Source of the DNA: Flavobacteriales bacterium
GTDB lineage: Bacteria > Bacteroidota > Bacteroidia > CAIKAF01
Direction of reading: 5' to 3'
DNA length: 64,000 bases
Assembly: GCA_025451295.1 (NCBI GenBank)
Contig: JANWKQ010000168.1
Coordinates: 911 to 64,910, forward strand
Under the pieces are notes generated by a model. The model was given only the letters and a program-made list of their open reading frames with translations, made no database searches and was not told where the DNA came from. Positions 6,433-63,916 of this stretch are shown here, in pieces (positions within the stretch are counted from its first letter, which is position 1; every line of letters starts with the position of its first letter). Position numbers and translations under genes: made by a program.

Positions 6433-7809
6433 TTATCCAACGGTTTGTTTTGGAAATGAAACATCTGCGTAATCTTTCCTGATCCTGGAGAGGTGTTCTG
6501 CCGTTTTGGTTACTGCAAAGCTGAGTTCTTCTTCCGTATGGTCACAGGTAATAAAGAACCTAAGTCTTGCTTCCTCTTCTGCTACTGCGGGATATAAAAT
6601 AGGTTGAACATTAATACCATCCAGAAAAAGAGCATTAGCTAATAACAAAGCATGGGCAGAGTTACCAGTAATAACCGGCACAACAGCCGAATCCTTGCTT
6701 GGTCCGGTATTAATTCCTTCTTCGTTGCACAATTTAATGAATAAGGTCGCATTGGTAACCGCTTTTACACCTCTCCAACCTTCCGTCTTCATGATTTTTG
6801 CGGCAGCCAGGGCAGCGCCTGCATTCTGTGGGGTAATTCCTACACTATAAACAAAACCAGGGGTATTATATTTTAAATAATCCACCAATACTTTTTTCCC
6901 TGCAATATATCCACCGCAACTGGCATAGGATTTACTAAAAGTACACATCCACATATCTACCTCATCGCGTTTAACGTTGTGATAATCGCCAACACCTAAA
7001 CCATTCGGGCCAATTACCCCCATCGAATGAGCTTCATCCATAAATAACAGGCAATTGTATTTCTTTTTTATTTCTATCAATCGCGGAAGATTACAAATAT
7101 CACCATCCATGCTAAAAACACCTTCTGTAGCAATCAATACTCTTTCGTAATCGTTGCGAACTTCCGCAAGAATTTTTTCCAATTCATCTAAATTTTCATG
7201 TGGATATGCAATTCTTCTTGCGCCGGATAAAAGACAACCTTCAATAATAGAATTATGTGCCAATGAATCATAGATCACCAGATCTTTACCTGCCCGTAGG
7301 ATATGGCCAATGATTGTTACATTCGTTGCGTGACCACTTACTAAAACGATTGCATCTTCCACCTGGTGAAGCTCGGCAATTGTTTTTTCCAATTCAAGGT
7401 GAATCGGTCTTTCACCGGTAGCAATTCTACTGGCGCTAACCGATGTCCCAAATTTATCTGCGGCATCCTTTGCACCTTGTGTAACCCTTGGGTCACCACT
7501 CATTCCAGTATAGTTATAACTGGAGAAGCTGATGTATTCTTTACCGCCGATTCGGGTTTTATCATTTACAATACCCTCATTAACCCGAAAATACGGATTC
7601 TCAACGTGCAACATTTCGAGGGTCTTATACTGGTTGGCCAGGGTTTGTACCTCAGGCCATTGATTGAAATCTGCAAATTTTGATGTGTCCTTATCTGCGG
7701 TTTCAGTAGTGGTGCTCAAGGTAGTAGCGGTCTTTACCGCCTTTTCCTTCATCATCTTTTTTAAAAGCTCCCTTTTCTCTTCAATCGACAGATTTTTGTT
7801 ATCCGACAT
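6433..7809 (-). CDS. alpha-oxoamine synthase-family acyltransferase (serine palmitoyltransferase / cysteate-C-fatty-acyltransferase-like)
   Basis: AONS/Spt-family PLP fold (…SYNYTGMSGDPRV…, FSKS lysine motif…). About 45-aa N-terminal extension. Confidence 0.8.
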   Translation of the reverse strand: MSDNKNLSIEEKRELLKKMMKEKAVKTATTLSTTTETADKDTSKFADFNQWPEVQTLANQYKTLEMLHVENPYFRVNEGIVNDKTRIGGKEYISFSSYNYTGMSGDPRVTQGAKDAADKFGTSVSASRIATGERPIHLELEKTIAELHQVEDAIVLVSGHATNVTIIGHILRAGKDLVIYDSLAHNSIIEGCLLSGARRIAYPHENLDELEKILAEVRNDYERVLIATEGVFSMDGDICNLPRLIEIKKKYNCLLFMDEAHSMGVIGPNGLGVGDYHNVKRDEVDMWMCTFSKSYASCGGYIAGKKVLVDYLKYNTPGFVYSVGITPQNAGAALAAAKIMKTEGWRGVKAVTNATLFIKLCNEEGINTGPSKDSAVVPVITGNSAHALLLANALFLDGINVQPILYPAVAEEEARLRFFITCDHTEEELSFAVTKTAEHLSRIRKDYADVSFPKQTVG

Positions 7810-17079: not shown

Positions 17080-17397
17080 AAAGCCTTCAGAATTTGTTGG
17101 CGAAAATAGGAAAGGAATACGGATTTTTTAGAGAATTCCGGTTTTTTAAGGAGTTTTTCTATGCAATAATTATGTAATATACTGGCATCTAAAATATTGA
17201 TAATTAAAAAATTAACAAACGGAGATAAGCTGTCAACATGTAATGGATTTGAAAGAGGTTGAACTATGGGGTGTAGGGGGGCGTATATTTGGTTATAGAA
17301 ATTGATTTCAACACCAGTTGAATAAAAATAAAAATCTGACGCGTTCTTTTTTCATATAATAGTTAAGTGGTAAATAGGCAAGATTTGCCGTAGGTGT

Positions 17398-17436
17398 AAA
17401 AAAGCCCTGGAGATATTCAGGGCTTTTTTTTGTGCA
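17398..17436 (+). terminator. orphan Rho-independent terminator in the serS/polyprenyl-synthase divergent region
   Basis: agccctg…cagggct hairpin followed by a T8 run. No ORF of 60 aa or more lies upstream on the plus strand. Confidence 0.5.
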
Positions 17437-17588
17437 ATTGGTTCGACGGCCGGTGAATCAGCCATACCGATATTTCATCATGGGTTAAAGTGGCGAAGGA
17501 AAGTGCCCTAATAATTCCTAAAAATAAACTTGCTGATATACAATTACGTAGGTTAATAGGATAGTTTTACGATATTTGCTGAGGTACG

Positions 17589-24531: not shown

Positions 24532-24621
24532 GAATTCGATTTGTTTGGGCGGCTTTTCCCGCTATCCGCTATATCTTTTGCTGAGCAAAAGGATGCCGCT
24601 CCTATCGCGGCCGCTGGCGTC
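24523..24621 (+). repeat. copy B (short form) of the dispersed intergenic repeat family
   Basis: Motif 1 (cgctatatcttttgctg) is directly fused to motif 2 (caaaaggatgccgct). Bounded by a perfect 8-bp inverted repeat (gacgccag…ctggcgtc). Lies between convergent genes. Confidence 0.5.
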
Positions 24622-27509
24622 TATACTTCAATATTTTCGTAAGCTTCAATGGCTATACAGGAACAAATAAGATTTCTGTCGCCGTATGCATCATCAATCC
24701 TTGATACTGGTGGCCAGAATTTATTTTCTTCAGTAAACTTTACAGGGAACGCTGCTTTTTTACGGCTATAAGGATAGTTCCAGTCATCCGAAGTAACAAC
24801 CAGCGAAGTATGTGGTGCATTTTTTAGTACATTGAGTTCAGCCGTATACTTTCCATTTTCAATTTCACTTATTTCATTCCGGATACTGATCAACGCATCG
24901 CAGAATTTATCCAATTCCTCTTTCGATTCGCTTTCAGTTGGTTCGATCATCAATGTTCCGGCAACCGGGAAAGAAACAGTCGGCGCATGAAATCCATAAT
25001 CCATCAATCTCTTGGCAATATCGATCACCTCAACACCTGCGGTCTTTTTAAAATTTCTGCAATCCACAATAAATTCGTGAGCCACCCTTCCGCTTTTTCC
25101 GCTGTAGAGGATCGGATAATGCTGACTGATCCTTTCCTTCATGTAATTAGCATTCAATATGGCCATTTTTGTACAAGCGGTTAAACCCTCTGCTCCCAGC
25201 ATTTTTATATATCCGTAAGAGATTAGCAGGATCAATGAACTTCCCCATGGTGCTGCAGATACCGCCGGAATTCCTTTTTCTCCTCCTGTTTTGATCAATA
25301 CATGGGATGGAAGAAAAGGTGCCAGGTGTGATTTTACACCAATCGGTCCCATACCAGGTCCGCCTCCCCCATGAGGGATTGCAAAAGTCTTATGTAAATT
25401 TAAGTGACAAACATCTGCACCAATTCTTGCCGGACTTGTAAGTCCAACCTGAGCGTTCATATTTGCTCCATCCATATAAACCTGTCCGCCATTTGCATGG
25501 ATGATCTCCGTTACTTCCATAATGGTTTCTTCATATACTCCATGAGTGGATGGATAAGTAACCATTAATGCGCTTAGCTGATCCTTATATTTTTCTGCTT
25601 TTTCTTTCAGATCGGTCATGTCAATATTTCCCAATTCATCACACTTCACAACTACCACATTCAATCCAGCCATTACTGCACTTGCCGGATTTGTTCCATG
25701 CGCCGAAGAAGGAATAAGTACAATATTTCTATGATGATCCCCGCGGGATTCGTGATATGCCTTGATTACCAGAAGGCCCGCAAATTCTCCCTGTGCGCCT
25801 GAATTCGGCTGAAGAGAAATGGCGTCAAACCCGGTAATTTCAGCAAGATCTTTCTCCAATATTTCAATCACTTCCTGATAACCTGCCGCCTGTTCTTTCG
25901 GAACAAAAGGATGAAGCTGATTGAATTTCGGCCAACTCAATGGGATCATTTCACTGGCGGCATTTAATTTCATGGTGCAGGAGCCTAAAGAGATCATGCT
26001 AAAGTTAAGTGCAATGTCTTTCGACTCCAGTTTCTTAATATAACGCATCAACTCCGATTCACTGTGATGACTGTTAAAGACCGGATGGGTCATAAATGTT
26101 GAAGTTCTTTTCAGATCTTTTGAGATCGACACAGTTGCTTTTTCCATGTCATCCAAACTAACAGGGGCAATATTTTTTCCTGATACCGAACCAAAACACC
26201 CGATCAAAGCATTCAGGTCTTCATCAGATGTAACCTCATCCACCGACATGGTTATTATTCCGTTTGATCCATAAAAAAGATTGCATTCATTTTTATAGGT
26301 GGCATCTTTTATTTTTTGATAAAGGCCATTGTCCATTACTTCAATAGAAATCGTATCGAAAAAATGATCCGAGGTAGTTTTAAAGCCGAGCTCATTTAAT
26401 TTTGTCCTTAACAAACTTGCTTTTTTATGAACGGACGTGGCAATGTTGGTAATTCCTTTTGGTCCATGATAAACCGCATACATTGATGCCATAATCGCCA
26501 GCAATGCCTGAGCCGTGCAAATATTGGATGTGGCTTTGTCTCTCCGGATATGTTGTTCCCTGGTTTGTAGTGACATTCTTAATGCAGGCTTTCCTTTGGA
26601 ATCCACTGAAACCCCAATAATTCTTCCGGGAATATGACGCTGATATTCTTTTTTAGTTGCAAAGAAAGCTGCATGTGGGCCTCCATAACCCATCGGAACA
26701 CCAAACCTTTGTGAATTTCCAACAACAATATCCGCTCCCCATTCGCCGGGTGCTGTAAGCAGAGCCAGACTTAAAAGATCAGTTGCAACTGTAACTACTA
26801 TATTTTTTTCTTTTGCTTTTTTTACGAGGTCAGCATAGTTTTTTACCGACCCGTCCATATCCGTATACTGCAATAAAAGGCCAAAATAAGAACCATTCAC
26901 ATCCAGTTTATCGAGAGAACTGATCACCAACTCAATCCCTAAATGACTGGCCCTTGATTTTAATACATCAATGGTTTGGATAAATACTTTATCGGAAACA
27001 AAGAATTTATTGACCCCGTTTTTTTCGGCCTCCCGGGATCTCATATGAAAGGACATTCCCATGGCTTCAGCCGCTGCGGTTCCCTCATCAAGTAAAGAGG
27101 CATTGGCGAGTTCCATTCCTGTAAGATCCATTACGACTGTCTGAAAGTTAAGGATCGCTTCCATCCTTCCCTGTGCAATCTCAGCCTGATAAGGCGTATA
27201 AGCAGTGTACCATCCTGGATTTTCAAAAATATTTCTTAAGATCGGTGAAGGCGTAATGGTTCCATAATAACCCTGACCAATAAAATTTCTGTATAAAAGA
27301 TTTTTCTGAGCAATATGCCTGATATGCTTTAGGTATTCATGCTCATGCATTCCGGCTTCAATTTTTAACCCTTTACGGTTTCGGATCTTTTCCGGAACGA
27401 TCTGATCCACCAAATGATCCACCGATTCCACCTTCAGCACATCAATCATTTCATTTATTTCACCTTCATCAGATCCAAGATGGCGTGGTATAAAATTTGA
27501 ACTTTGCAT
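24621..27509 (-). CDS. gcvP: glycine dehydrogenase (decarboxylating), glycine cleavage P protein
   Basis: 962-aa single-chain GcvP with both PLP-dependent halves. Confidence 0.95.
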   Translation of the reverse strand: MQSSNFIPRHLGSDEGEINEMIDVLKVESVDHLVDQIVPEKIRNRKGLKIEAGMHEHEYLKHIRHIAQKNLLYRNFIGQGYYGTITPSPILRNIFENPGWYTAYTPYQAEIAQGRMEAILNFQTVVMDLTGMELANASLLDEGTAAAEAMGMSFHMRSREAEKNGVNKFFVSDKVFIQTIDVLKSRASHLGIELVISSLDKLDVNGSYFGLLLQYTDMDGSVKNYADLVKKAKEKNIVVTVATDLLSLALLTAPGEWGADIVVGNSQRFGVPMGYGGPHAAFFATKKEYQRHIPGRIIGVSVDSKGKPALRMSLQTREQHIRRDKATSNICTAQALLAIMASMYAVYHGPKGITNIATSVHKKASLLRTKLNELGFKTTSDHFFDTISIEVMDNGLYQKIKDATYKNECNLFYGSNGIITMSVDEVTSDEDLNALIGCFGSVSGKNIAPVSLDDMEKATVSISKDLKRTSTFMTHPVFNSHHSESELMRYIKKLESKDIALNFSMISLGSCTMKLNAASEMIPLSWPKFNQLHPFVPKEQAAGYQEVIEILEKDLAEITGFDAISLQPNSGAQGEFAGLLVIKAYHESRGDHHRNIVLIPSSAHGTNPASAVMAGLNVVVVKCDELGNIDMTDLKEKAEKYKDQLSALMVTYPSTHGVYEETIMEVTEIIHANGGQVYMDGANMNAQVGLTSPARIGADVCHLNLHKTFAIPHGGGGPGMGPIGVKSHLAPFLPSHVLIKTGGEKGIPAVSAAPWGSSLILLISYGYIKMLGAEGLTACTKMAILNANYMKERISQHYPILYSGKSGRVAHEFIVDCRNFKKTAGVEVIDIAKRLMDYGFHAPTVSFPVAGTLMIEPTESESKEELDKFCDALISIRNEISEIENGKYTAELNVLKNAPHTSLVVTSDDWNYPYSRKKAAFPVKFTEENKFWPPVSRIDDAYGDRNLICSCIAIEAYENIEV

Positions 27510-28453: not shown

Positions 28454-29728
28454 ATGCATTTCGAATTTTCCGAAGAATTTGCGGTAAGCCAGGATCAATA
28501 CGATACACTTGCAGCTTACAGGAACCGGTTTCACTTTCCATTGATCCATGGGAAGAAGGCGATCTATTTTACCGGTAATTCCTTAGGACTTCAGCCTGAC
28601 AAAGCAGAGGAATATATTTTACAGGAAATGGAGGATTGGAAAAAATTTGGAGTGGAAGGACATTTCCAGGCGAAAAATCCATGGTTCAGTTATCATGAAC
28701 CTTTTGCAAAATTATTGGCACCCATTGTTGGAGCCAAGGAATCTGAAGTAGTTGCGATGGGATCGCTTACCAATAATTTACATTTGCTGATGGTATCTTT
28801 TTATCGTCCTACATCTACCCGTTATAAAATTCTGAGTGAGCAAAAAGCATTTCCTTCTGATCTGTATGCATTGGATAGTCAGGCCCGGTTTCATGGCTTC
28901 GATCCAAAGGATGCGGTGGTGGAAATTGGTCCGAGGGAGGGTGAAACGTATATCCGGAATGATGATGTGATCGCCAAAATACAGGAGCTTGGAGATAGTC
29001 TGGCGCTTGTAATGATGGGAGGAGTCAATTTTTACACTGGTCAACTTTTTGACATGGGAAAAATCACAGAGGTTGGCCATTCAAATGGTGCGGTGGTGGG
29101 TTTTGACCTGGCGCATGCAGCCGGAAATGTATCCTTACAATTAAATGCATGGAAAGTTGATTTCGCTGCATGGTGCAGTTATAAATATTTAAATAGTGGT
29201 CCGGGTAGCGTAGCTGGAATTTATGTTTATGAAAAACATCATACAGATGGATCATTGCCCCGTTTAAATGGATGGTGGGGAAATAAGGCTGATTCCAGAT
29301 TTAAAATGGAAAGATCGTTTCGTGCTTTTGAAACGGCAGAAGCATGGCAACTTTCGAATGCACCGGTTTTTTCGATGGCGATCCACCGAGCTTCACTTGA
29401 AATATTTAATGAGGCGGGCATGGATGCGTTGGTGGAGAAATCAAGAAAACTGTCAGGTTATACACATACCGTAATAGAAAAAATAAATGCGGATGCAGGT
29501 GAAGAACTCATCCAGGTGATTACACCTACGGATCAGCATGAACGTGGTTGTCAGGTTTCGATGGTGATGAAAAAAAACGGACGCATGGTTTTTGATGCCT
29601 TGTTAAAAAACGGGATCTTAACCGATTGGCGGGAACCGGATGTGATCCGGATTGCACCGGTACCACTTTATAATTCTTTTAAAGATGTATTTGATTTTTA
29701 TTCAACCCTTCGAAAAATATTATTATGA
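28454..29728 (+). CDS. kynU: kynureninase
   Basis: PLP-lysine motif WCSYKYLNSGPG. Class V aminotransferase fold. Confidence 0.85.
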   Translation: MHFEFSEEFAVSQDQYDTLAAYRNRFHFPLIHGKKAIYFTGNSLGLQPDKAEEYILQEMEDWKKFGVEGHFQAKNPWFSYHEPFAKLLAPIVGAKESEVVAMGSLTNNLHLLMVSFYRPTSTRYKILSEQKAFPSDLYALDSQARFHGFDPKDAVVEIGPREGETYIRNDDVIAKIQELGDSLALVMMGGVNFYTGQLFDMGKITEVGHSNGAVVGFDLAHAAGNVSLQLNAWKVDFAAWCSYKYLNSGPGSVAGIYVYEKHHTDGSLPRLNGWWGNKADSRFKMERSFRAFETAEAWQLSNAPVFSMAIHRASLEIFNEAGMDALVEKSRKLSGYTHTVIEKINADAGEELIQVITPTDQHERGCQVSMVMKKNGRMVFDALLKNGILTDWREPDVIRIAPVPLYNSFKDVFDFYSTLRKILL

Positions 29729-38937: not shown

Positions 38938-38984
38938 GGATCAACTTTGATGGATAAAGTTACAAATAATCTCCAATGGCATAG

Positions 38985-39128
38985 GGATAGAAGCGGCATC
39001 CTTTTTATTGCTTCCCAAAACCATTTTCGATGCAGCAGTACAGACGTGCCCTGGCACGTCTCCTCAAATTGACGAAACTACGCGAACAGCAATAAAAAGA
39101 TATAGCGAATAGCCCGTTGCGCCATAGC
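38985..39128 (-). repeat. copy D of the dispersed intergenic repeat family (inverted orientation)
   Basis: On the minus strand it contains motif 1 (ttcgctatatctttttattgctg), the palindrome (agacgtgccagggcacgtct) and motif 2 (gcaataaaaaggatgccgcttc), in the same order and spacing as copy A. Confidence 0.5.
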
Positions 39129-39212: not shown

Positions 39213-39917
39213 TTATTTTTCCTGGAGGTCATCATCAAATCCTTTATCACCACCCTTTTTCTTCCGTTCACCTTTTTTATTCTTTCTATACTCCTTTATT
39301 AGTTTGATCTGATCTTCCGATAGAATTTTCTTAACACCTTCTTTTTTATCTTCATTAATGACTTTCATCGCATTCTTCATTCCATCAGTACCCAGATCGT
39401 TGGCACAAAAAGCCGCTTTTTTTCTGGTAGCCAGATCTGTCAACAAAACCTTCATGTCATTACGTTGGTTTCCGGTGAATTTTACAATTTCATCTATTTG
39501 ATCGAGGCGATGATCAATCCTCTCATCCAGACTACCTCCTTTTTTATGATCCTGTTTTTTACCTTTATGTTCCGCCTTCTTTTCTTTTAAATGTGTTTTC
39601 AAAAGTTTCACCTGGTCATTCGATAGGATTTTTTTTACACCCGCTTTTTTCTCTTTCTGAATATCCTTCATTGCATTTTTCATTCCTGCCGAACCTATTT
39701 CGTTGGTACAAAAGGCATCTTTCTTCTTTTTGGCAAGATCTGTAAGCAAGATCTTCAGATCGTTTCGCTGTGTGCCGGTAAATTTGACCACTTCATCCAT
39801 TTTATCAAGGCGGCGATCCACCCGGTCTTCTATAGTTCCACCACCGCGGTGATGCTGGCTGAAGCTAAAGGCTACCATACCAAGGAATACTGCTATACTT
39901 AATGTTAACCGTTTCAT
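39213..39917 (-). CDS. secreted Lys-rich protein with two ~100-aa internal repeats, LTXXQ/Spy-CpxP-like
   Basis: Signal peptide. Internal duplication (…RLDKMDEVVKFTGTQRNDLKILLTDLAKKKKDAFC… versus …RLDQIDEIVKFTGNQRNDMKVLLTDLATRKKAAFC…). LS(N/E)DQ motifs resemble LTXXQ. Confidence 0.45.
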   Translation of the reverse strand: MKRLTLSIAVFLGMVAFSFSQHHRGGGTIEDRVDRRLDKMDEVVKFTGTQRNDLKILLTDLAKKKKDAFCTNEIGSAGMKNAMKDIQKEKKAGVKKILSNDQVKLLKTHLKEKKAEHKGKKQDHKKGGSLDERIDHRLDQIDEIVKFTGNQRNDMKVLLTDLATRKKAAFCANDLGTDGMKNAMKVINEDKKEGVKKILSEDQIKLIKEYRKNKKGERKKKGGDKGFDDDLQEK

Positions 39918-40027: not shown

Positions 40028-40363
40028 TTAATTGCCGCGATCCAGGCGTTTGTTTCTTTTTTTACGAAGATTTGTTTTTGGTTTTGCTTTGGCTTGGATC
40101 CGGTTTTTTTTGATCCTGTGAGTTGATGCTTTCTTTTGATTACGCGTTATATAAGCATTGGTATTTCCATTCTGCTTGGTTCTGCCATGCGAATTGAACC
40201 TGTTCTTGGCTGAATGTTTTACATGTTTATTTGTTTTTAAAGTATTTGGACCTTTTCTGGTATTTAAACAAGGGTTTCCAAAATTAGATCCAACCTGCGC
40301 CGTGGCAACAACCATTGTGAATAAGGTAACGAGAAGAATGGCTAAAAGGGATTTAGTTTTCAT
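40028..40363 (-). CDS. small secreted, extremely basic (K/R/N-rich) protein
   Basis: Signal peptide MKTK…TAQ followed by a low-complexity basic region. Confidence 0.4.
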   Translation of the reverse strand: MKTKSLLAILLVTLFTMVVATAQVGSNFGNPCLNTRKGPNTLKTNKHVKHSAKNRFNSHGRTKQNGNTNAYITRNQKKASTHRIKKNRIQAKAKPKTNLRKKRNKRLDRGN

Positions 40364-40399
40364 GACTCAACTTTTCATAGGGAATCCAAATTGCGTGCC

Positions 40400-40435
40400 A
40401 AAAGAAAACGCCGGGTTGTTCCGGCGTTTGTATGA
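40400..40435 (-). terminator. terminator for the His/Cys-rich protein gene
   Basis: aacgccgg…ccggcgtt hairpin followed by a T-rich tract on the minus strand. Confidence 0.5.
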
Positions 40436-40457
40436 TCTGTTTTATGAAGTTCAATGT

Positions 40458-40790
40458 TTAGTCGTCATCGTGTTTGCAGCATTTTCCTTTGTGATTATCA
40501 TGATCGTTTTTACACTTATGCTTGTGTTTATCACAATGTTTATGCTTGTGTTTACAACAACTATCGTGGTTATGACCATGATTGGAGCAGTAATTATTAT
40601 TATTTGAATAGTTATCTGAACAGCATCCTGAATTGTTACTGTAAAAGATTCCTGTATTACTGTTAGGCGTGGTGCCTAAGGAGAGGGTGGAGCTGAAACC
40701 TCCAGCTACTGTAATAGAGATCTGGGCGGTAGAGGTTGTGCTGGTGAGCAACAACATACACATAGCGGCAAAAAGAACTTTGGTTTTCAT
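40458..40790 (-). CDS. small secreted His/Cys/Lys-rich protein (putative metal-binding)
   Basis: Signal peptide MKTK…TAQ. C-terminal CCSDN…CCKHKHKHCDKHKHKCKNDHDNHKGKCCKHDDD. TAnnTTTG-like promoter motif upstream. Confidence 0.5.
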   Translation of the reverse strand: MKTKVLFAAMCMLLLTSTTSTAQISITVAGGFSSTLSLGTTPNSNTGIFYSNNSGCCSDNYSNNNNYCSNHGHNHDSCCKHKHKHCDKHKHKCKNDHDNHKGKCCKHDDD

Positions 40791-40857: not shown

Positions 40858-42201
40858 TTAGGAATGGGATAATAGGTGTAGGATCTTTTCTTCCACTTCC
40901 ATGCTATTCCATTTTTCGGCCAGATTGGGCATTTTCATTACCTGGGCCATGATGGCGTTTTGATAATCCCCTTTTTGCAAAGCATACTCATATGAAAAAT
41001 CACTGAAGGTAACCATCGAGTACAGAGGTACCCATTTATCTGGATGCTTTTGATAGAACCAGCCTTCTATTTTTTTCTGAAGTAAAAAATCAGGGTCAGC
41101 AGTCAAATCACGCATTTCAATAAAATTTCGCAAGGCAAGTTCCGCTACCGAATCTGCATTGGGTTTTCTTGATTTTCCAAAGGCTTCGAAAAAATTCTCA
41201 AACTTATTGAGATGTTCATCCAACATCTGATCGAAAACAAAACAATCTTCAAATCCAGCATTCATGCCTTGTCCGTAAAAGGGAACCACGGCATGAGCTG
41301 CATCTCCCATAAGAACTACAGAATCCTTATAATGCCATGGATAGCAGCGAATGGTTTGAAGCGCAGAGGTTGGATGATTTAAAAATTGCTCCATGAAATC
41401 CGGAAGGTGAGGGATCACATCAGGGAAATAATATTGAAAGAACCCTAGAATATCCCGTTCTGTTTTTAAAGACTGAAAAGAAACTTTCCCTTCCCATCCT
41501 AAAAATAATGTACAGGTAAAACTTCCATCAATATTTGGCAGGGCGATCAGCATAAAATCTTCCCTTGGCCATATATGTAAGGTGTTTGGATCCATTTTAT
41601 GGGATCCGTCTTCATTCGCTTCGATATGAAGTTCTTTGTATCCATGATCGATATAGTCCTGCGAATAATCAAAACGTTCGTTGAACATGAGGCGATGTCG
41701 CACAGCGGAAAAAGCCCCATCTGTGCCGATGAGATGTTCGTAAACATGCGACATTTCTTCACCAGTTATATCATTTTTGAAGTACGCAGTTTTGTTTTCC
41801 AGATCGATGTTTGCACAACGGGCATCAAAATGCATGGTCGTCTGTTCGTATTTGTCGGCGATTTGCAATAAGGTTCTGTTGAGTTCTCCCCTCGATACGC
41901 TATAGATCGCTTCACCTTCTTTACCATAAGGTTGAAAGGTTAAATTCCCATGTATATCATGCATGGTCCTTTTATACATCGGGATCGCAATTTCACGGAT
42001 GGTTTCTTCAGCACCAACTTTCCGCAGGGCTTTCCATGCCCGGTTACTCACAGCCAGATTGATGGATCTTCCCTGATAAATATCAGCGTTCCGGATATCC
42101 GGTCTTCTTTCAAACAGATCAACCCTGAATCCGCGTTGTGCTAAAAAAACAGATTGTAAGGCTCCAACCAGTCCCCCGCCAACAATGGTAAAATTTTTCA
42201 T
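40858..42201 (-). CDS. kmo: kynurenine 3-monooxygenase (FAD-dependent)
   Basis: N-terminal FAD-binding GxGxxG (IVGGGLVGAL). KMO-length flavoprotein monooxygenase. The track start at 42276 is probably an over-extension. Confidence 0.8.
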   Translation of the reverse strand: MKNFTIVGGGLVGALQSVFLAQRGFRVDLFERRPDIRNADIYQGRSINLAVSNRAWKALRKVGAEETIREIAIPMYKRTMHDIHGNLTFQPYGKEGEAIYSVSRGELNRTLLQIADKYEQTTMHFDARCANIDLENKTAYFKNDITGEEMSHVYEHLIGTDGAFSAVRHRLMFNERFDYSQDYIDHGYKELHIEANEDGSHKMDPNTLHIWPREDFMLIALPNIDGSFTCTLFLGWEGKVSFQSLKTERDILGFFQYYFPDVIPHLPDFMEQFLNHPTSALQTIRCYPWHYKDSVVLMGDAAHAVVPFYGQGMNAGFEDCFVFDQMLDEHLNKFENFFEAFGKSRKPNADSVAELALRNFIEMRDLTADPDFLLQKKIEGWFYQKHPDKWVPLYSMVTFSDFSYEYALQKGDYQNAIMAQVMKMPNLAEKWNSMEVEEKILHLLSHS

Positions 42202-42297
42202 TTTTGTTCTTTCTGTTACAAATATAACAAGTCCGTAAACAAAAAAGCATCCTGACCAATGGTCAGGATGCCCCACTTTCAGAGTAGGTTGGTGTAC

Positions 42298-55693: not shown

Positions 55694-56620
55694 ATGAAAA
55701 CAATCACCCTCCCAATCATTGCATTTCTGTTCATTACAGGACTGGCCTCTGCTCAAAAAAATCATAAAGAAATCTCTTTTAAAAAGAACAAAACCACCGG
55801 AACTTACATGGATCTTAAAAAGATCGAGTCTTTTTTTTCTTACATCCCTATGCAAAGCTATCAGATGCCTGACAATCGGATCGTATCGGTCAAAAGTTTT
55901 TATATGTTACGTTTTGAGGTGCCTAATATGATGTATCATATGTTTATGGATGATTTGGCGTTTGAAGGAAGAACAATGGATTTTAATATGGCCTATCCTG
56001 ATACGAATATCTGGTTCAGCGGATTGAGTCCATATCAGCATTACTATTATCAGCATCAGGCCTATCATGAATATCCGGTATTGGGTGTTTCGCGGGAAGG
56101 AGTGAATTTGTTTTGTTCATGGCTTGAGGAAAAAATAAAAATACTTTCACCAAAAGAATGGAGGAATAAAAAAATAAGTATCCGCCTGCCTTCCGAGGCC
56201 GAATGGATGATTGCTGCATCCGGTGATATAAACAATGCAGTGTATGCATGGAAGGGCTCTTATATGCGATATCCATCCGGGATCTGGCAGGGAGACTACA
56301 TGGCGAATTTTTGCAAGATAAACGATAGCGAGATCATCCGCGATGAAAATGGAAAACTAACTGTTGAATCTACAACTAGTTTTGCCGGAAGTCTTGATGA
56401 TAATGCGTACATCACATCACCGGTTATTTGCTATTGGCCAAATGGATATGGGTTATACAATATGTGTGGCAACGTAAGAGAAATGGTGCAGGAAGAGGGT
56501 TTTACAAAAGGCGGAGGATGGATCGATCCGGGAAGCGAATTAAAGATTACCGCCAGAAATACATATCAAAAAGAAGGATTTCCCTGTGAAGGTTTCAGAG
56601 TTGTTATTATGTTGGAATAG
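55694..56620 (+). CDS. formylglycine-generating-enzyme (FGE/SUMF1) family protein
   Basis: Signal peptide. FGE-sulfatase motifs (NMCGNVREMV…GGGW). Confidence 0.75.
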   Translation: MKTITLPIIAFLFITGLASAQKNHKEISFKKNKTTGTYMDLKKIESFFSYIPMQSYQMPDNRIVSVKSFYMLRFEVPNMMYHMFMDDLAFEGRTMDFNMAYPDTNIWFSGLSPYQHYYYQHQAYHEYPVLGVSREGVNLFCSWLEEKIKILSPKEWRNKKISIRLPSEAEWMIAASGDINNAVYAWKGSYMRYPSGIWQGDYMANFCKINDSEIIRDENGKLTVESTTSFAGSLDDNAYITSPVICYWPNGYGLYNMCGNVREMVQEEGFTKGGGWIDPGSELKITARNTYQKEGFPCEGFRVVIMLE

Positions 56621-56628
56621 CAGCGACT

Positions 56629-57765
56629 TTACTCCTTGTCCTCGATAAACGGCTCGTCTTGTGCTTTAAGTAATTCTCCACTTAAAGTTTTCAGCGGATT
56701 TTTCGTAAGCTCTTTATTGTTGGTCCGCGTCAAATAAAGGTCTGCTGCCAGATACAATGCATCTCTGAAAGAGGTTACATCCGCCTTATCTTTTCCTACC
56801 AGATCAAAACCTGGTCCATGATCCGGTGATGTTCGAATGAAATTCAATCCTGCGGTATAATTTACACCACCAATACCGGCGAGTGTTTTAAATGGTACCA
56901 ATCCCTGGTCATGATACATGGCCAGAATGCCATCATAATTTTTAAAATTACCTGATGCAAAAAAACCATCCGCCGCAAACGGACCCATTACCAACATGTT
57001 TTTTTCTTTCAACGTCTCAATGGCAGGTATAATAATTTCTGCTTCTTCATTTCCGAATTTTCCATGATCCCCGGCATGCGGATTTAAGGCAAGAACGGCA
57101 ATCTTAGGTTTTGAAATAGAGAAATCCCGTACCAATGTTTCTTTTAAAAGTTGTGCTTTTTTTATAATATTTTATTTGGTGAGAGATGCCGTGATCTTAC
57201 TAATACCAACATGTCCGGTAACCAATGCCACCCTCAGATTTTCATGTACCATGAGCATCAATGATTCTTTTCCGGCTTTATCGGCAAAATATTCTGTATG
57301 CCCTGCAAAAGAAAAACCTACTTTTTCAAGATTTGATTTATCGATCGGAGCTGTTACCAATCCATGAATTTTTCCGGCCACCAGATCCGCTGTGCCAGCT
57401 TCGAGACTCATCACCGCATATTTTGCACCGGTTTCATTGGAAACTCCGGGATCTATTTTGGCTTCTTCCTGCCATACATTGATGAGATTTACTTTTCCAG
57501 CCTGTGCTTCTTCAACTGTTCTAATCGCATGGTAAACGAAATTTTCGGCAGTACACATTTTTTTATAAAAAGAAAATACACGTGCTGAGCCATAAATAAC
57601 AGGAGTAAAAGTTTCAAGAATATCCGGCTCCTCAAAAGTTTTCAGGATCAATTCAGGACCAATTCCATTAAAATCCCCCAGGGTAATTCCAATCTTTATT
57701 TTATTCTGCCCTGTTGCCTTATTCATCATACCAATGAGCTTTTTACTTGAGTTTATTGAGTACAA
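56629..57765 (-). pseudogene. pdxA: 4-hydroxythreonine-4-phosphate dehydrogenase PdxA interrupted by a single in-frame TAA
   Basis: ORFs 57172..57765 (N-terminal half) and 56629..57135 (C-terminal half, with LNPHAGD) are in the same frame. They are separated by TAA at 57172..57174. Read-through gives …SLTK*NIIKKAQLLKETLVRDF…, a plausible PdxA linker. Confidence 0.7.
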
Positions 57766-59164
57766 ACTGGGTTAATAGTCTAACGCCAGCTCCTGTTCCA
57801 ATCACAGTTCTATATCCTCTTGGAGAATCCAGTAATGCGTTTGAAATATCCAAGTGGATCCATGGATAGCCCACAAAATGTTCCAGGAATTTTCCTGCTG
57901 TAATTGCACCAGCTTTAGGTCCACCTATATTTTTTATATCTGCTATATTTGATTTGAGCAAATCTCCATATTCGTCCCATAACGGAAATTTTACAAGCCT
58001 TTCATACACATCAAAACCGGCTTTTTCAAGTTTGCTGAATTCATCCGTCGCATTTTTTTCCATTCCTACAATCCCCATTTCTCCAATAGCAGCAACCGCT
58101 GCTCCGGTTAAGGTAGCAAGATCAATCACCAGCTCAGGATCATATTTTTTTGCATAATGTAGTGCATCTGCCAGAATAAGCCGTCCTTCTGCATCTGTAT
58201 TCATTACTTCCACCGTTTTTCCGCTTGCCATCGTGAGAATATCGCTTACGACAATGGCATTCCCATCAATCCTGTTATCCGTTGCGGGGATTAAACCAAT
58301 TACATGGTAGGGTAATTTTGATTTAGCAATAGCGTATAAGGCACCTACCACCGCAGCGGCTCCTGCCATATCTCCCTTCATTTGCTCCATAGAAGGCGAT
58401 GGCTTCAGACTAATTCCGCCGGTATCGAAAACCACTCCTTTACCTACAAAGATCAGCGGATTTTTATTAGCTGGTTTGGCCGGCTTATATTCCAGTATAT
58501 TAAATGTGGGTGTATCTTCACTGCCTTTATTTACTCCCAGCAGACCTCCCATTTTTAAACTTTCAATTTTTTTCCGCGTAAAATATTCAAATTTAAAACC
58601 TGCCTTTTTAGAAAGCTTTTCAATTTCTTTACTCAGTTTTTCTGCTGTTAAATAACATACAGGCTCATTTACCAGTGTACGGGCTGCAAAAGTACCTTCT
58701 ATCAGATTGGAGAGCACTTCAACTTCCTTTTTCTCGATCTTTCCTACCAGGGTTATTTTTTTGAAACGGAATTTACCTGGTTTAGAAAAATACTTATCGA
58801 ACTGGTAAGCGGTTAGTGCAAGACCTTCTGCAAGGGTTAAGGCAGCCCGGGCCGAAACAACACCATCAATATGGACCTCGTTCTGATGAAAACTCTTCAG
58901 TTGTGCATAGATCCTTGATCCATGAAGACGCATCTTTTCTAAACCTCCTGGGGTATTTATATCTGCCAGTTTTACCAGGTAATAGAAAGATTCGTAACGA
59001 TTGATGAATACCATTTCTTTGGCATCTTTACCCGAAAATTCCTTCTTAATAAATGCGGTCTCTTTTTTATCGAATTTGTAGTTTTTGAGGCATTTTAGCT
59101 CAGCATCTGCAATGATAATGTTTGACGAAAGGCGTTTGGTGGCCAGTTCGAATTTGATCTCCAT
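57743..59164 (-). CDS. pepA: leucyl aminopeptidase (M17)
   Basis: NTDAEGRL motif. M17 C-terminal catalytic domain. Confidence 0.9.
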   Translation of the reverse strand: MEIKFELATKRLSSNIIIADAELKCLKNYKFDKKETAFIKKEFSGKDAKEMVFINRYESFYYLVKLADINTPGGLEKMRLHGSRIYAQLKSFHQNEVHIDGVVSARAALTLAEGLALTAYQFDKYFSKPGKFRFKKITLVGKIEKKEVEVLSNLIEGTFAARTLVNEPVCYLTAEKLSKEIEKLSKKAGFKFEYFTRKKIESLKMGGLLGVNKGSEDTPTFNILEYKPAKPANKNPLIFVGKGVVFDTGGISLKPSPSMEQMKGDMAGAAAVVGALYAIAKSKLPYHVIGLIPATDNRIDGNAIVVSDILTMASGKTVEVMNTDAEGRLILADALHYAKKYDPELVIDLATLTGAAVAAIGEMGIVGMEKNATDEFSKLEKAGFDVYERLVKFPLWDEYGDLLKSNIADIKNIGGPKAGAITAGKFLEHFVGYPWIHLDISNALLDSPRGYRTVIGTGAGVRLLTQFVLNKLK

Positions 59165-59692: not shown

Positions 59693-59704
59693 ACAGGGCC
59701 TTTA

Positions 59705-59800
59705 AGACCCAACCAGGAAGAAGCGGCCCGAAACCGGAGGCGCCTGCAAGGCGGCCCGAAGGGCGGCACCCGGAGGGTGAGGAAAGGCCGCCCAAATACG
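59705..59800. other. GC-rich intergenic element with degenerate ~25-nt direct repeats (gcggcccgaa…)
   Basis: aagcggcccgaaaccggaggcgcc, then aaggcggcccgaagggcggcaccc, then complementary ggccgccc. It stands out sharply in an AT-rich context. Confidence 0.3.
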
Positions 59801-59932
59801 CTGTAAATCTCCAAGTATTATTATACCTTTGTTACCTATTATACTGGTTATATGGCTAAAGAAACATTGGCTCCTGCAGTAAAATCGAAAACCTAATTTT
59901 CGAAAGAACAATACCTTAAATGGTATGAGGAT

Positions 59933-60880
59933 ATGCTCATGTGGAGAAAAATTGAAGAGAAAGCAGGGCATTTATATATTCAACAAAAAATTCGTGGATT
60001 TTGTCATCTCTATGTTGGACAGGAAGCAGTAGTTGCTGGATCAGCCTCAGCTATTCGTCCTGATGATAATATGATTACGGGTTATAGAAATCACGTTCAT
60101 CCATTGTCAAAAGGGATGCATCCGAAATACATGATGGCTGAATTATTTGGAAAATCAACAGGGTGTTCCAAAGGGAATGGTGGTTCGATGCACATGTTCA
60201 GCAAGGAATTAAGATTTTTTGGAGGACATGGTATTGTAGGTGGACAAATTCCGCTGGGTGCAGGTCTTGCATTCGGAGATAAATTTGCAGGGAACGATCG
60301 CATCACACTTTGTTATATGGGTGATGGTGCTGTAAGACAAGGTGCCTTGCATGAAACATTTAATCTCGCCATGTTGTGGAAACTACCTGTGATATTTATT
60401 ATCGAAAATAATATGTATGCGATGGGAACTTCCGTTGAAAGAAGTTCGAATGTACATGATCTGTATAAGCTGGGAGCTGCTTATGAAATGCCAAGTTTCC
60501 AGGTGGATGGAATGAAACCAGAAACCATGCATGATGCCGTAGTTGAAGCAGCAACGAGAGCCAGAAAAGGAGACGGACCTACTTTATTGGAGGTAAAAAC
60601 ATATCGCTATAAAGGACATTCAATGAGTGATCCTCAAAAATACCGAAGTAAAGAAGAGGTAGAAGATTATAAGGAGGAAGATCCGATCTTATGGACCTTA
60701 AGTGTGATCCAGAAAAATAAATGGGCAACAGAGAAAGAAATTGATGCGATTGAGGAAAGGGTGAATGCATTGGTGGAAGAGAGTGTGAAGTTTGCAGAAG
60801 AATCTCCATTTCCGGATGCATCGGAATTGTACAAACAAGTTTATATTGAAGAAAATTATCCGTTTATACGGGAAGATTAA
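59933..60880 (+). CDS. pdhA: pyruvate dehydrogenase E1 alpha subunit (TPP-dependent); in-frame TAA upstream truncates the conserved N-terminus
   Basis: TPP-binding motifs (GDGA…N). A 14-codon ORF (59852, MAKETLAPAVKSKT) is followed by TAA at 59894 and then by in-frame FSKEQYLKWYEDM, a motif conserved in PdhA N-termini. Confidence 0.8.
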   Translation: MLMWRKIEEKAGHLYIQQKIRGFCHLYVGQEAVVAGSASAIRPDDNMITGYRNHVHPLSKGMHPKYMMAELFGKSTGCSKGNGGSMHMFSKELRFFGGHGIVGGQIPLGAGLAFGDKFAGNDRITLCYMGDGAVRQGALHETFNLAMLWKLPVIFIIENNMYAMGTSVERSSNVHDLYKLGAAYEMPSFQVDGMKPETMHDAVVEAATRARKGDGPTLLEVKTYRYKGHSMSDPQKYRSKEEVEDYKEEDPILWTLSVIQKNKWATEKEIDAIEERVNALVEESVKFAEESPFPDASELYKQVYIEENYPFIRED

Positions 60881-62471: not shown

Positions 62472-62960
62472 TTGTTGAGTTTTATGAGGAAAACATGGAT
62501 TGTTGTTTTAATTATTTCTGTCTCCAGTTTTTTTGTGGCCTGTGGTGTTAAATCAGCTTTTAAAAATGAGAATAACGCTTTCGGAAACCCCAAATCAGCT
62601 GCTACAAAATATTTGAAATGTCTGTTGAAAAAAGACTATGACAAAGCGAAGACATTGGCTACTAAAGAAACCGCATCTAATCTGGATATGATGAAAGTGC
62701 TGGGAACGGATTTTGGATTGACAGAAGTAAAAGACGTTAAATGTTTTGTAAATGGGAATACTGCTACCTGTACCTTTTGCTGTACCAAGGATACTTCTTT
62801 TAAGGAGCTGAAGATGATCAATGAGGGTGGCAAATGGCTGGCGCACCAACCCAAAGAAATGCCTCCTATAGATACTACGGCTACTGAGGAGTATAATGAT
62901 GAATATAGTACTCCAAAAACCCCGGAGGATATGGAAAAAAGACGTATGCAAAACCGTTAA
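62472..62960 (+). CDS. lipoprotein, paralog 1 of 3 (NTF2-like small lipoprotein family)
   Basis: Lipobox (FVACG). Conserved ...NAFGNPKS.ATKYL.CL.KKDYDKAKTLAT.ET….ATCTFCCTKDTSFKELKM..EGGKWLAHQPKE. Confidence 0.6.
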   Translation: MLSFMRKTWIVVLIISVSSFFVACGVKSAFKNENNAFGNPKSAATKYLKCLLKKDYDKAKTLATKETASNLDMMKVLGTDFGLTEVKDVKCFVNGNTATCTFCCTKDTSFKELKMINEGGKWLAHQPKEMPPIDTTATEEYNDEYSTPKTPEDMEKRRMQNR

Positions 62961-62972
62961 AATAAAAACAGC

Positions 62973-63446
62973 ATGAAAAAAAGACTTTCAATTATTTCCG
63001 TTGGCCTTATCCTGGTTATCTTGGTTGGATGTGGTGTAAAATTCTCCTTCAACAATAATGAGAATTCCTTTGGGAATCCCAAATCGGTAGCTACCAAATA
63101 TCTAACCTGCCTGATGAAGAAAGACTATGATAAAGCCAAAACGTTGGCTACCCCAGAAACTGCTCAAAACCTTAGTATGATGCAATCCATGGGTGCAGAT
63201 TTTGGACTCACAGTGGTGAAGGATGTAAAATGTATTGTAAGCGGAAATGAAGCCACCTGTACTTTTTGCTGTACAAAAGATACTTCGTTTAAAGAACTTA
63301 AAATGAGAAAAGAAGGAGGAAAATGGTTGGCACATCAACCGAAGGAAACGCCGCCTATTGATAACGAAGATAATAATAGCAATACCGATTACCTTACACC
63401 CAAATCGGCCGAGGACATGGAAAAGAATCGCCAGAAAAACCGTTAA
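62973..63446 (+). CDS. lipoprotein, paralog 2 of 3
   Basis: About 70% identical to its neighbours. Lipobox LVGCG. Confidence 0.6.
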   Translation: MKKRLSIISVGLILVILVGCGVKFSFNNNENSFGNPKSVATKYLTCLMKKDYDKAKTLATPETAQNLSMMQSMGADFGLTVVKDVKCIVSGNEATCTFCCTKDTSFKELKMRKEGGKWLAHQPKETPPIDNEDNNSNTDYLTPKSAEDMEKNRQKNR

Positions 63447-63457
63447 AATAAAACTGT

Positions 63458-63916
63458 ATGAAAAAAAGACTTTCCATTATTTCGATCAGCCTTATCCTGG
63501 TTGTATTGATTGGATGTGGTATGAAATTCTCATTCAACAATAATGAGAATTCTTTTGGGAATCCCAAATCGGTAGCTACAAAATATTTAACCTACCTGAT
63601 GCAGAAGAATTATGACAAGGCTAAAACGATTGCTACCAAAGAAACAGCAGCCAATCTTGATATGATGAATTCCCTGGGGACCGATTTTGGGATCACGGTG
63701 GTAAAGAATGTGGTTTGCAAAGTAAAAAACGATGAAGCTACCTGTACTTTTTGTTGTACGAAGGATACTTCCTTTAAAGAACTTAAGATGAGAAAAGAGG
63801 GAGGTCAATGGCTTGCACATCAACCCAAAGAAACACCACCCTCAAATGACGATAACAATAATTATTCCACACCGAGATCAGCTGAGGAGATTGAAAGAGG
63901 TCGTCAGAACCGTTAA
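63458..63916 (+). CDS. lipoprotein, paralog 3 of 3
   Basis: About 70% identical to its neighbours. Lipobox LIGCG. Confidence 0.6.
   Translation: MKKRLSIISISLILVVLIGCGMKFSFNNNENSFGNPKSVATKYLTYLMQKNYDKAKTIATKETAANLDMMNSLGTDFGITVVKNVVCKVKNDEATCTFCCTKDTSFKELKMRKEGGQWLAHQPKETPPSNDDNNNYSTPRSAEEIERGRQNR

Follow-up and report, generated by a model that had tools for sequence, protein, structure and literature searches.

A single in-frame TAA at a conserved glutamate codon interrupts an otherwise intact pdxA gene in a Flavobacteriales contig

In bacteria, stop codons are decoded as sense when selenocysteine is inserted at UGA or pyrrolysine at UAG, when UGA is read as tryptophan or as glycine in variant codes, and when phages recode TAG or TGA. 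UAA has no role in the selenocysteine and pyrrolysine systems, and we know of no bacterial recoding system or genetic code that reassigns it. Nonsense alleles may also be kept functional by a suppressor tRNA, as are the amber alleles of E. coli K-12 lineages that carry supE. Among the three stops, UAA is the one that is terminated most efficiently. One report gives the same hierarchy for eukaryotes, with UAA as the most efficient stop (PMC5829715).

The pdxA gene described here lies in a 64-kb stretch of a Flavobacteriales contig, which is referred to as the window throughout. It is similar to cases of programmed recoding in that an in-frame stop stands inside a conserved enzyme gene, but the codon is UAA, the major terminator of the window, and the two sites at which it occurs share neither context nor structure nor amino acid. 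Suppressor-maintained alleles of the supE type would be an applicable model if the rest of the genome encodes a suppressor; however, none is present in the 64 kb, and a tRNA that suppresses ochre codons would at the same time read through 59% of the normal terminators in the window. With the bacterial unitary nonsense pseudogenes that NCBI PGAP marks by 'internal stop', the gene shares the change of a conserved sense codon to a stop in one step as well as the ancestral pepA-pdxA synteny. Unlike these, it bears no secondary lesion and no relaxed constraint, so that it would represent either the youngest detectable stage of a pseudogene or no real mutation at all. Compared with the PdxA family (TIGR00557/PF04166), the match is full-length, colinear and above the curated cutoffs, and the invariant residues are kept, whereas the frame is broken at codon 186, which parts His173 from His218 and His273. 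The stop in pdxA is a textbook one-step nonsense lesion of an ordinary kind; it is not evidence of unusual decoding.

Reading the minus strand from 56500 to 57900, with translation of 56629-57732, gave a single frame, ...GISKITASLTK * NIIKKAQLLKETLVRDFSISKPKIAVLALNPHAGD..., in which the internal stop at 57174..57172 is followed by no further stop or frameshift until the terminal TAA at 56631..56629 (Table 1). Both pieces of the gene match the Pfam PdxA profile (PF04166) in colinear order, the upstream piece over profile positions 2-143 (E 4e-30) and the downstream piece over positions 146-286 of 286 (E 2e-62). The joined product reaches 339.4 bits against TIGR00557 pdxA, an equivalog model with a curated cutoff of 290.35 bits, and a homologue with 90% identity (P0001) matches the solved PdxA chains 6XMY, 3LXY, 1PS6 and 1PS7 with E values of 1e-55 to 1e-51. 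The initial sequence-only reading of this DNA had taken the two ORFs for halves of PdxA in the same frame, separated by TAA 57172-57174 only and free of other lesions, and on both counts it was borne out by the translation, the two profiles, the open frame and the absence of indels. Its upstream boundary at 57765, in turn, is a mechanical ORF edge, a TTG within the end of pepA, and not a gene start; pdxA begins at ATG 57729 or 57726 (orthologues begin MNKATG). At the C-terminus, ...FIEDKE, the window and all close orthologues end on the same residue. The first canonical start codon after the internal stop is TTG 57135, which lies 36 nt or 12 codons further on in an A/T-rich stretch and is an invariant Leu codon in the orthologues; on sequence grounds only, it may be considered as a candidate for a working start.

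Table 1. Coordinates of the pdxA and pdhA features and of further genes in the window
Feature	Position	Strand	Remarks
AONS-like aminotransferase, PLP-dependent, intact	6433-7809
GcvP, PLP-dependent, intact	24621-27509	-
Kynureninase, PLP-dependent, intact	28454-29728
Kynurenine 3-monooxygenase, intact	40858-42276
pdxA, 4-hydroxythreonine-4-phosphate dehydrogenase	56629..57729	-	366 codons + terminator, broken at codon 186
Genuine pdxA terminator TAA	56629-56631	-	directly after downstream piece
pdxA downstream piece, codons 187-366	56632..57171	-	with invariant His218, His273, His304
TTG, first canonical start after pdxA stop	57133..57135	-	start of 168-aa gene call
In-frame TAA, pdxA codon 186	57172..57174	-	orthologues Glu (GAA/GAG)
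pdxA upstream piece, codons 1-185	57175..57729	-	with invariant His144 and His173; PF04166, alignment
TACCTTTG, match to Bacteroidetes -7 box TAnnTTTG	59824..59831	+	intergenic comparison
pdhA, pyruvate dehydrogenase E1 alpha	59852..60880	+	ancestral ATG 59852; Pfam E1_dh
In-frame TAA, pdhA codon 15	59894..59896	+	relatives Lys (Asn in one ambiguous alignment)
First ATG past pdhA stop	59933..59935	+	start of 315-aa product P0243

A search of 5.8 billion protein clusters yielded 16 homologues with 82-90% identity to the window PdxA, and each of the 16 is a single chain of 365-366 aa. The best 120 homologues are single polypeptides as well, with lengths of 338-379 aa save for one of 505 aa. This rules out a PdxA that naturally consists of two polypeptides, an alternative the sequence-only reading had allowed for (120 of the 120 best homologues are single chains). 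A split PdxA also occurred in 0 of 7 related loci, and the only near-identical short PdxA in the 5.8 billion clusters was P0121, the gene call from this same contig; other short matches were 55-66% identical, several of them labelled partial. In the alignment, all 16 close homologues have Glu in the column of the stop. Of the 30 aligned homologues in total, about 24 have it, and the others have Asp, Gln, Ser, Thr or Asn. At the DNA level, codon 186 is GAA or GAG in all seven related loci, which comprise the Flavobacteriales MAGs L001, L002 and L003, the metagenome contigs L037, L038 and L039, and the Logan contig L057. As the orthologous codon is GAA/GAG, the lesion corresponds to one G-to-T change (GAA to TAA). 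The comparison with orthologues that had been proposed from the sequence thus returned Glu, a residue one substitution away from TAA. The gene is still at its ancestral position next to pepA (pepA-pdxA synteny).

Among these loci, the record of L002 (CAZUXM010000036.1) bears the title 'uncultured Candidatus Competibacteraceae bacterium', the name of a gammaproteobacterial family, yet the locus is syntenic with the window at 75-81% DNA identity over pdxA-pepA-cdd-pdhA-E2; the contig was probably mis-binned or mislabelled.

Besides the stop, the window PdxA has 0 specific changes at the 206 of 365 columns that are invariant among 16 close relatives. Its 6 singletons, 3 in each half, all fall outside invariant columns; this is within the range of the intact relatives, which carry between 2 and 17 singletons, 0-7 of them at invariant columns. 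The closest DNA is that of L057, with 81% nucleotide identity; measured against it, dN amounts to 0.06 and dS to about 1.5. The N-terminal half (0.061 and 1.6) and the C-terminal half (0.055 and 1.4) agree in these values, with a dN/dS of about 0.04 before as well as after the stop. The length of pdxA is exactly 1098 nt in all seven sequences, with no indels. Of the features that mark a nonsense pseudogene, the window gene accordingly has the stop one substitution away from a conserved sense codon (GAA to TAA) and none of the signs of relaxed selection, such as further stops, indels or changes at invariant sites. From 0 changes at about 480 non-synonymous sites of the invariant columns, we estimate that the neutral divergence since any loss of constraint would be less than about 0.6% (95% bound). 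As there is no sign of decay elsewhere in pdxA, the stop would be young, with an age that lies within the species. The lack of relaxed selection fits nothing but a very recent event or an error, and the total absence of decay is equally predicted by a sequencing error.

The position of the stop within the protein was derived from the AlphaFold model of P0001 (90% identical, pLDDT 86.9). In this model, codon 186 corresponds to the first residue of helix 184-202, and the stop site lies between helix 175-181 and strand 208-212, the latter leading into the NPHAG motif. In 31 sequences, the window PdxA among them, His144, His173, His218 and His273 do not vary. At a constant offset of +7, His173, His218 and His273 are the equivalents of His166, His211 and His266, which we take to be the Zn ligands in E. 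coli PdxA, and His144 presumably is the equivalent of His136 from the metal/active-site set (offset of +8). All residues that are invariant in the family are kept in the window, and what sets its PdxA apart is the interruption of a chain that in family members runs uninterrupted over about 330-370 aa. Since two of the three presumed Zn ligands (His218 and His273) are missing from it, the 185-residue N-terminal fragment alone should be inactive. Restart at TTG 57135 would remove 12 residues (187-198) of helix 184-202, and as judged from the model a working two-piece PdxA is possible only in principle.

The window contains a second in-frame TAA, which the sequence-only reading had described as comparable and located 2.7 kb away in pdhA. 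This stop is real: it follows the ancestral ATG 59852 in frame at 59894-59896 and is 2,720 bp from the TAA in pdxA. The gene matches Pfam E1_dh over profile positions 2-299 of 300 (E 1e-94) and is 88-92% identical to five relatives, all of which begin with MAKET.... At the site of the stop, where AAA (Lys) is changed to TAA, the protein has an N-terminal tail of varying length among relatives, and the product starting from ATG 59933 retains the entire E1_dh domain. The pdhA TAA would have arisen by a separate A-to-T change in this variable tail, and it probably does no more than shift the start to ATG 59933. About 20 nt ahead of the ancestral ATG, TACCTTTG is kept in the window and in five relatives. 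It fits TAnnTTTG, which we take to be the consensus of the Bacteroidetes -7 promoter box, and it may act as a putative -7 promoter element of pdhA. Between cdd and this promoter, positions 59700-59800 form a 100-nt island with 71% G+C, as against 39.6% in the window. The island has no Rfam match (E<=1) and folds no better than shuffled sequences (z -1.0 and 0.0). At the same spot, L001, L003, L037 and L039 have unrelated sequences of differing lengths and mostly raised G+C, and L002 has almost none, so that the island looks like a hypervariable intergenic insert.

TAA terminates 34 of the 57 genes in the window, compared to 15 for TAG and 8 for TGA, and in the genes checked (pdxA, pepA, pdhA and E2) the TAA ends coincide with the orthologous C-termini. 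The internal stop of pdxA is in the context TAA-A, which is also the commonest context of the genuine TAA terminators in the window (17/34). Tandem stop analysis showed no enrichment of back-up stops after TAA-ended genes in the window. The two internal TAAs replace different amino acids, Glu in pdxA and Lys in pdhA, and neither stop is common to any of the relatives. The sole tRNA in the 64-kb window is tRNA-Phe(GAA); a suppressor tRNA was not found there. Rfam scans detected no element near either stop at the gathering level, nor at E<=1 in the leader of pdhA and in the gap at 55.3-55.7 kb; the only matches in these scans were Flavo-1, one tRNA and one chance SmY. A scan for promoters and terminators returned no more matches than it did on shuffled sequence, and our search of the literature turned up nothing specific on nonsense alleles of pdxA or on bacteria that naturally read through UAA. 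A reassigned code would have lost the codon as terminator and would show frequent in-frame cases for one amino acid; TAA is in regular use as terminator, and the in-frame cases number only 2. Recoding of the selenocysteine or pyrrolysine type would involve UGA with a SECIS element or UAG with pyl genes at a conserved site, whereas the codon here is UAA and the orthologues have GAA/GAG. Under the codon usage of the window, a random single-base change is nonsense in 4.8% of cases, and TAA accounts for 47% of the nonsense changes; from GAA and from AAA, TAA is the sole stop that can be reached in one step. It is therefore unremarkable that both stops are TAA. Most likely, the pdxA stop is neither recoded nor read through, and TAA acts as a normal terminator. 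Read-through, one of the options put forward from the sequence, found no support, as TAA ends 34/57 genes, the sites stand for Glu and Lys, the context is TAA-A, and no relative has either stop. The seven-A run soon after the pdxA stop (ATA AAA AAA) was considered and rejected; as it lies downstream and is conserved as Lys-Lys in relatives, it cannot rescue the frame.

The window is 90% coding, and its 57 genes are tightly packed. Pfam profiles are covered from position 1-2 to the end in 20 genes in the 1-39 kb part and in the FGE-sulfatase gene. When ORFs of relatives were compared to the 39-62 kb part by tblastn, the only in-frame stops in real genes were those at 57174 and 59894, and all other starred matches belonged to shadow frames. 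Neither same-frame pairs of adjacent ORFs nor upstream in-frame translations indicated further broken genes, and no frameshifts were seen in the 57 genes. The same genes are free of stops in six related loci (L001-L003 and L037-L039), and pdxA of L057 is intact as well. Because the other genes are intact and frameshifts are absent, the window resembles neither a decaying genome nor an error-prone long-read assembly. In pepA, cdd, pdhA, E2 and tatA, the conserved columns showed no excess of unique changes, although this test is weak at the error rate in question.

Several further features of the window were recorded. Kynureninase and kynurenine 3-monooxygenase together point to a tryptophan-to-NAD (kynurenine) pathway. 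The Flavo-1 RNA family (RF01705) has two matches above the gathering score, with 50.2 and 48.2 bits, at 24551-24616 (-) downstream of gcvP and at 38974-39123 (+) between cobB/Sir2 and the gene for a repeat-containing secreted protein. The latter match spans 150 nt on a model of 76 positions and hence includes a large insertion. At 39213-39917, a 234-aa secreted protein is built from two internally duplicated halves (RRLDKMDEVVKFTGTQRNDLKILLTDLAKKKKDAFC... recurring as HRLDQIDEIVKFTGNQRNDMKVLLTDLATRKKAAFC...) and is 58% conserved in L001. Two small secreted proteins of very low complexity are encoded at 40028-40790, one of them Lys/Arg/Asn-rich and 111 aa long, the other with a His/Cys/Lys/Asp-rich tail (...HGHNHDSCCKHKHKHCDKHKHKCKNDHDNHKGKCCKHDDD) as a possible metal-binding peptide. 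At 62472-63916, three paralogous lipoprotein genes, for products of 162, 157 and 152 aa, stand in tandem on one strand and have the common pattern CGVKF/NNENSFGNPKS...ATCTFCCTKDTSFKELKM...GGKWLAHQPKE; in relatives, they have only a weak single match (33-34%, L037). The 509-nt gap from serS to the polyprenyl synthetase gene (17080-17588), with no ORF above 37 aa and no gathering-level Rfam match, is the largest unexplained non-coding stretch of the window.

We favour the reading that pdxA carries a real, non-functional nonsense allele of recent origin over that of a consensus error, and assign it a probability of about 0.5. A single G-to-T substitution would have converted Glu codon 186 from GAA to TAA, and the ribosome would read this TAA as an ordinary stop. 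The product would be the 185-residue N-terminal fragment, which includes His144 and His173 and lacks His218, His273 and His304. This gene of the DXP-dependent PLP pathway would then be a null allele or a nascent pseudogene and extremely young, and the cell would presumably rely on salvage of B6 vitamers or on cross-feeding. Both the reality of the base, as opposed to a consensus error, and its physiological consequence are inferred. A null pdxA would be costly unless B6 is supplied, because PLP is still needed by three intact PLP-dependent enzymes. Nonsense pseudogenes make up well under 1% of genes, and to find two housekeeping genes with a nonsense codon no more than 2.7 kb apart, among 57 genes, is above this rough expectation. 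A possible, though less likely, explanation is that the stops are consensus or base-call errors in a draft, probably metagenome-assembled contig, and that the true genes are intact with GAA in pdxA and AAA in pdhA. Such an error would account for a pdxA with no other lesion or relaxed constraint; it would agree with the expected need for PdxA function while the PLP enzymes are intact, and with both changes being transversions to T within A/T-rich runs. The evidence also comes from a single 66-kb contig that has been seen once. Both stops are present in the public NCBI contig (66,016 bp) and were not introduced into the window, and the gene calls from that contig, PdxA of 185 aa (P0241) and 168 aa (P0121), PdhA of 315 aa (P0243), PepA and E2, occur once each. 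No second assembly of the same species was found in protein, genome or metagenome collections. The closest full-length PdxA is 90% identical, protein-guided scans gave 83-87% for GTDB genomes and 86% for JGI metagenomes, and metagenome contigs contained no exact match to a 40-mer in which the mutated base was replaced by N. Against an error stands the rate it would demand: with 4.8% of changes being nonsense, two stops imply about 40 substitution errors in 58 kb, or about 7e-4 per base, and the consensus error of short reads is far below this value. Error-prone long reads would give frameshifts, of which there are 0 in 57 genes, and the neighbouring genes have no surplus of unique changes at conserved columns, though the power of this test is low.

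If the mutation is real, enough PdxA might still be made, be it by rare near-cognate read-through, by an ochre suppressor elsewhere in the genome, or by re-initiation at TTG 57135 with fragments that assemble. We regard such a rescue as rather improbable. PLP is required in trace amounts only, PLP-dependent enzymes are kept, a TTG lies 36 nt past the stop in an A/T-rich stretch, and pdhA as a second housekeeping gene has a TAA too. The 180 codons downstream of the stop are constrained like the upstream ones, which a young stop predicts likewise. The efficient termination at UAA noted at the outset argues against this rescue, as do the stop context, which is that of normal terminators, and the lack of enrichment of back-up stops. 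Likewise, neither a suppressor tRNA within the window nor an Rfam element near the stop was found, the TTG restart would cost 12 residues of helix 184-202, and no relative has a split PdxA. It is very improbable that a free-living Flavobacteriales bacterium tolerates UAA in two housekeeping genes with both of them functional, whether through a natural UAA-suppressing tRNA or through re-initiation that gives a two-piece PdxA and a shortened PdhA. Reassignment of TAA to sense, or a PdxA of two natural subunits, would build on the two in-frame TAAs in conserved genes, just two in number. It is effectively refuted by the 34/57 genes that end in TAA, with ends that match orthologous C-termini (pdxA, pepA, pdhA and E2), by Glu at one site and Lys at the other, by homologues that are single chains of 338-379 aa, and by the sense codon in 7 related loci.

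As a result of automatic gene calling, public collections list two PdxA fragments, of 185 and 168 aa, and a truncated PdhA of 315 aa as separate proteins. Should the stop in pdxA be an error, gene callers have made two false proteins from this gene, and the two have already entered public protein collections. The finding is of little importance beyond annotation, and wider interest would arise only if UAA suppression were functional or a split PdxA worked, which is unlikely. Should the base be real, as we favour, the organism would just have lost de novo synthesis of vitamin B6; it would be a community-dependent B6 auxotroph and a small data point on cross-feeding.
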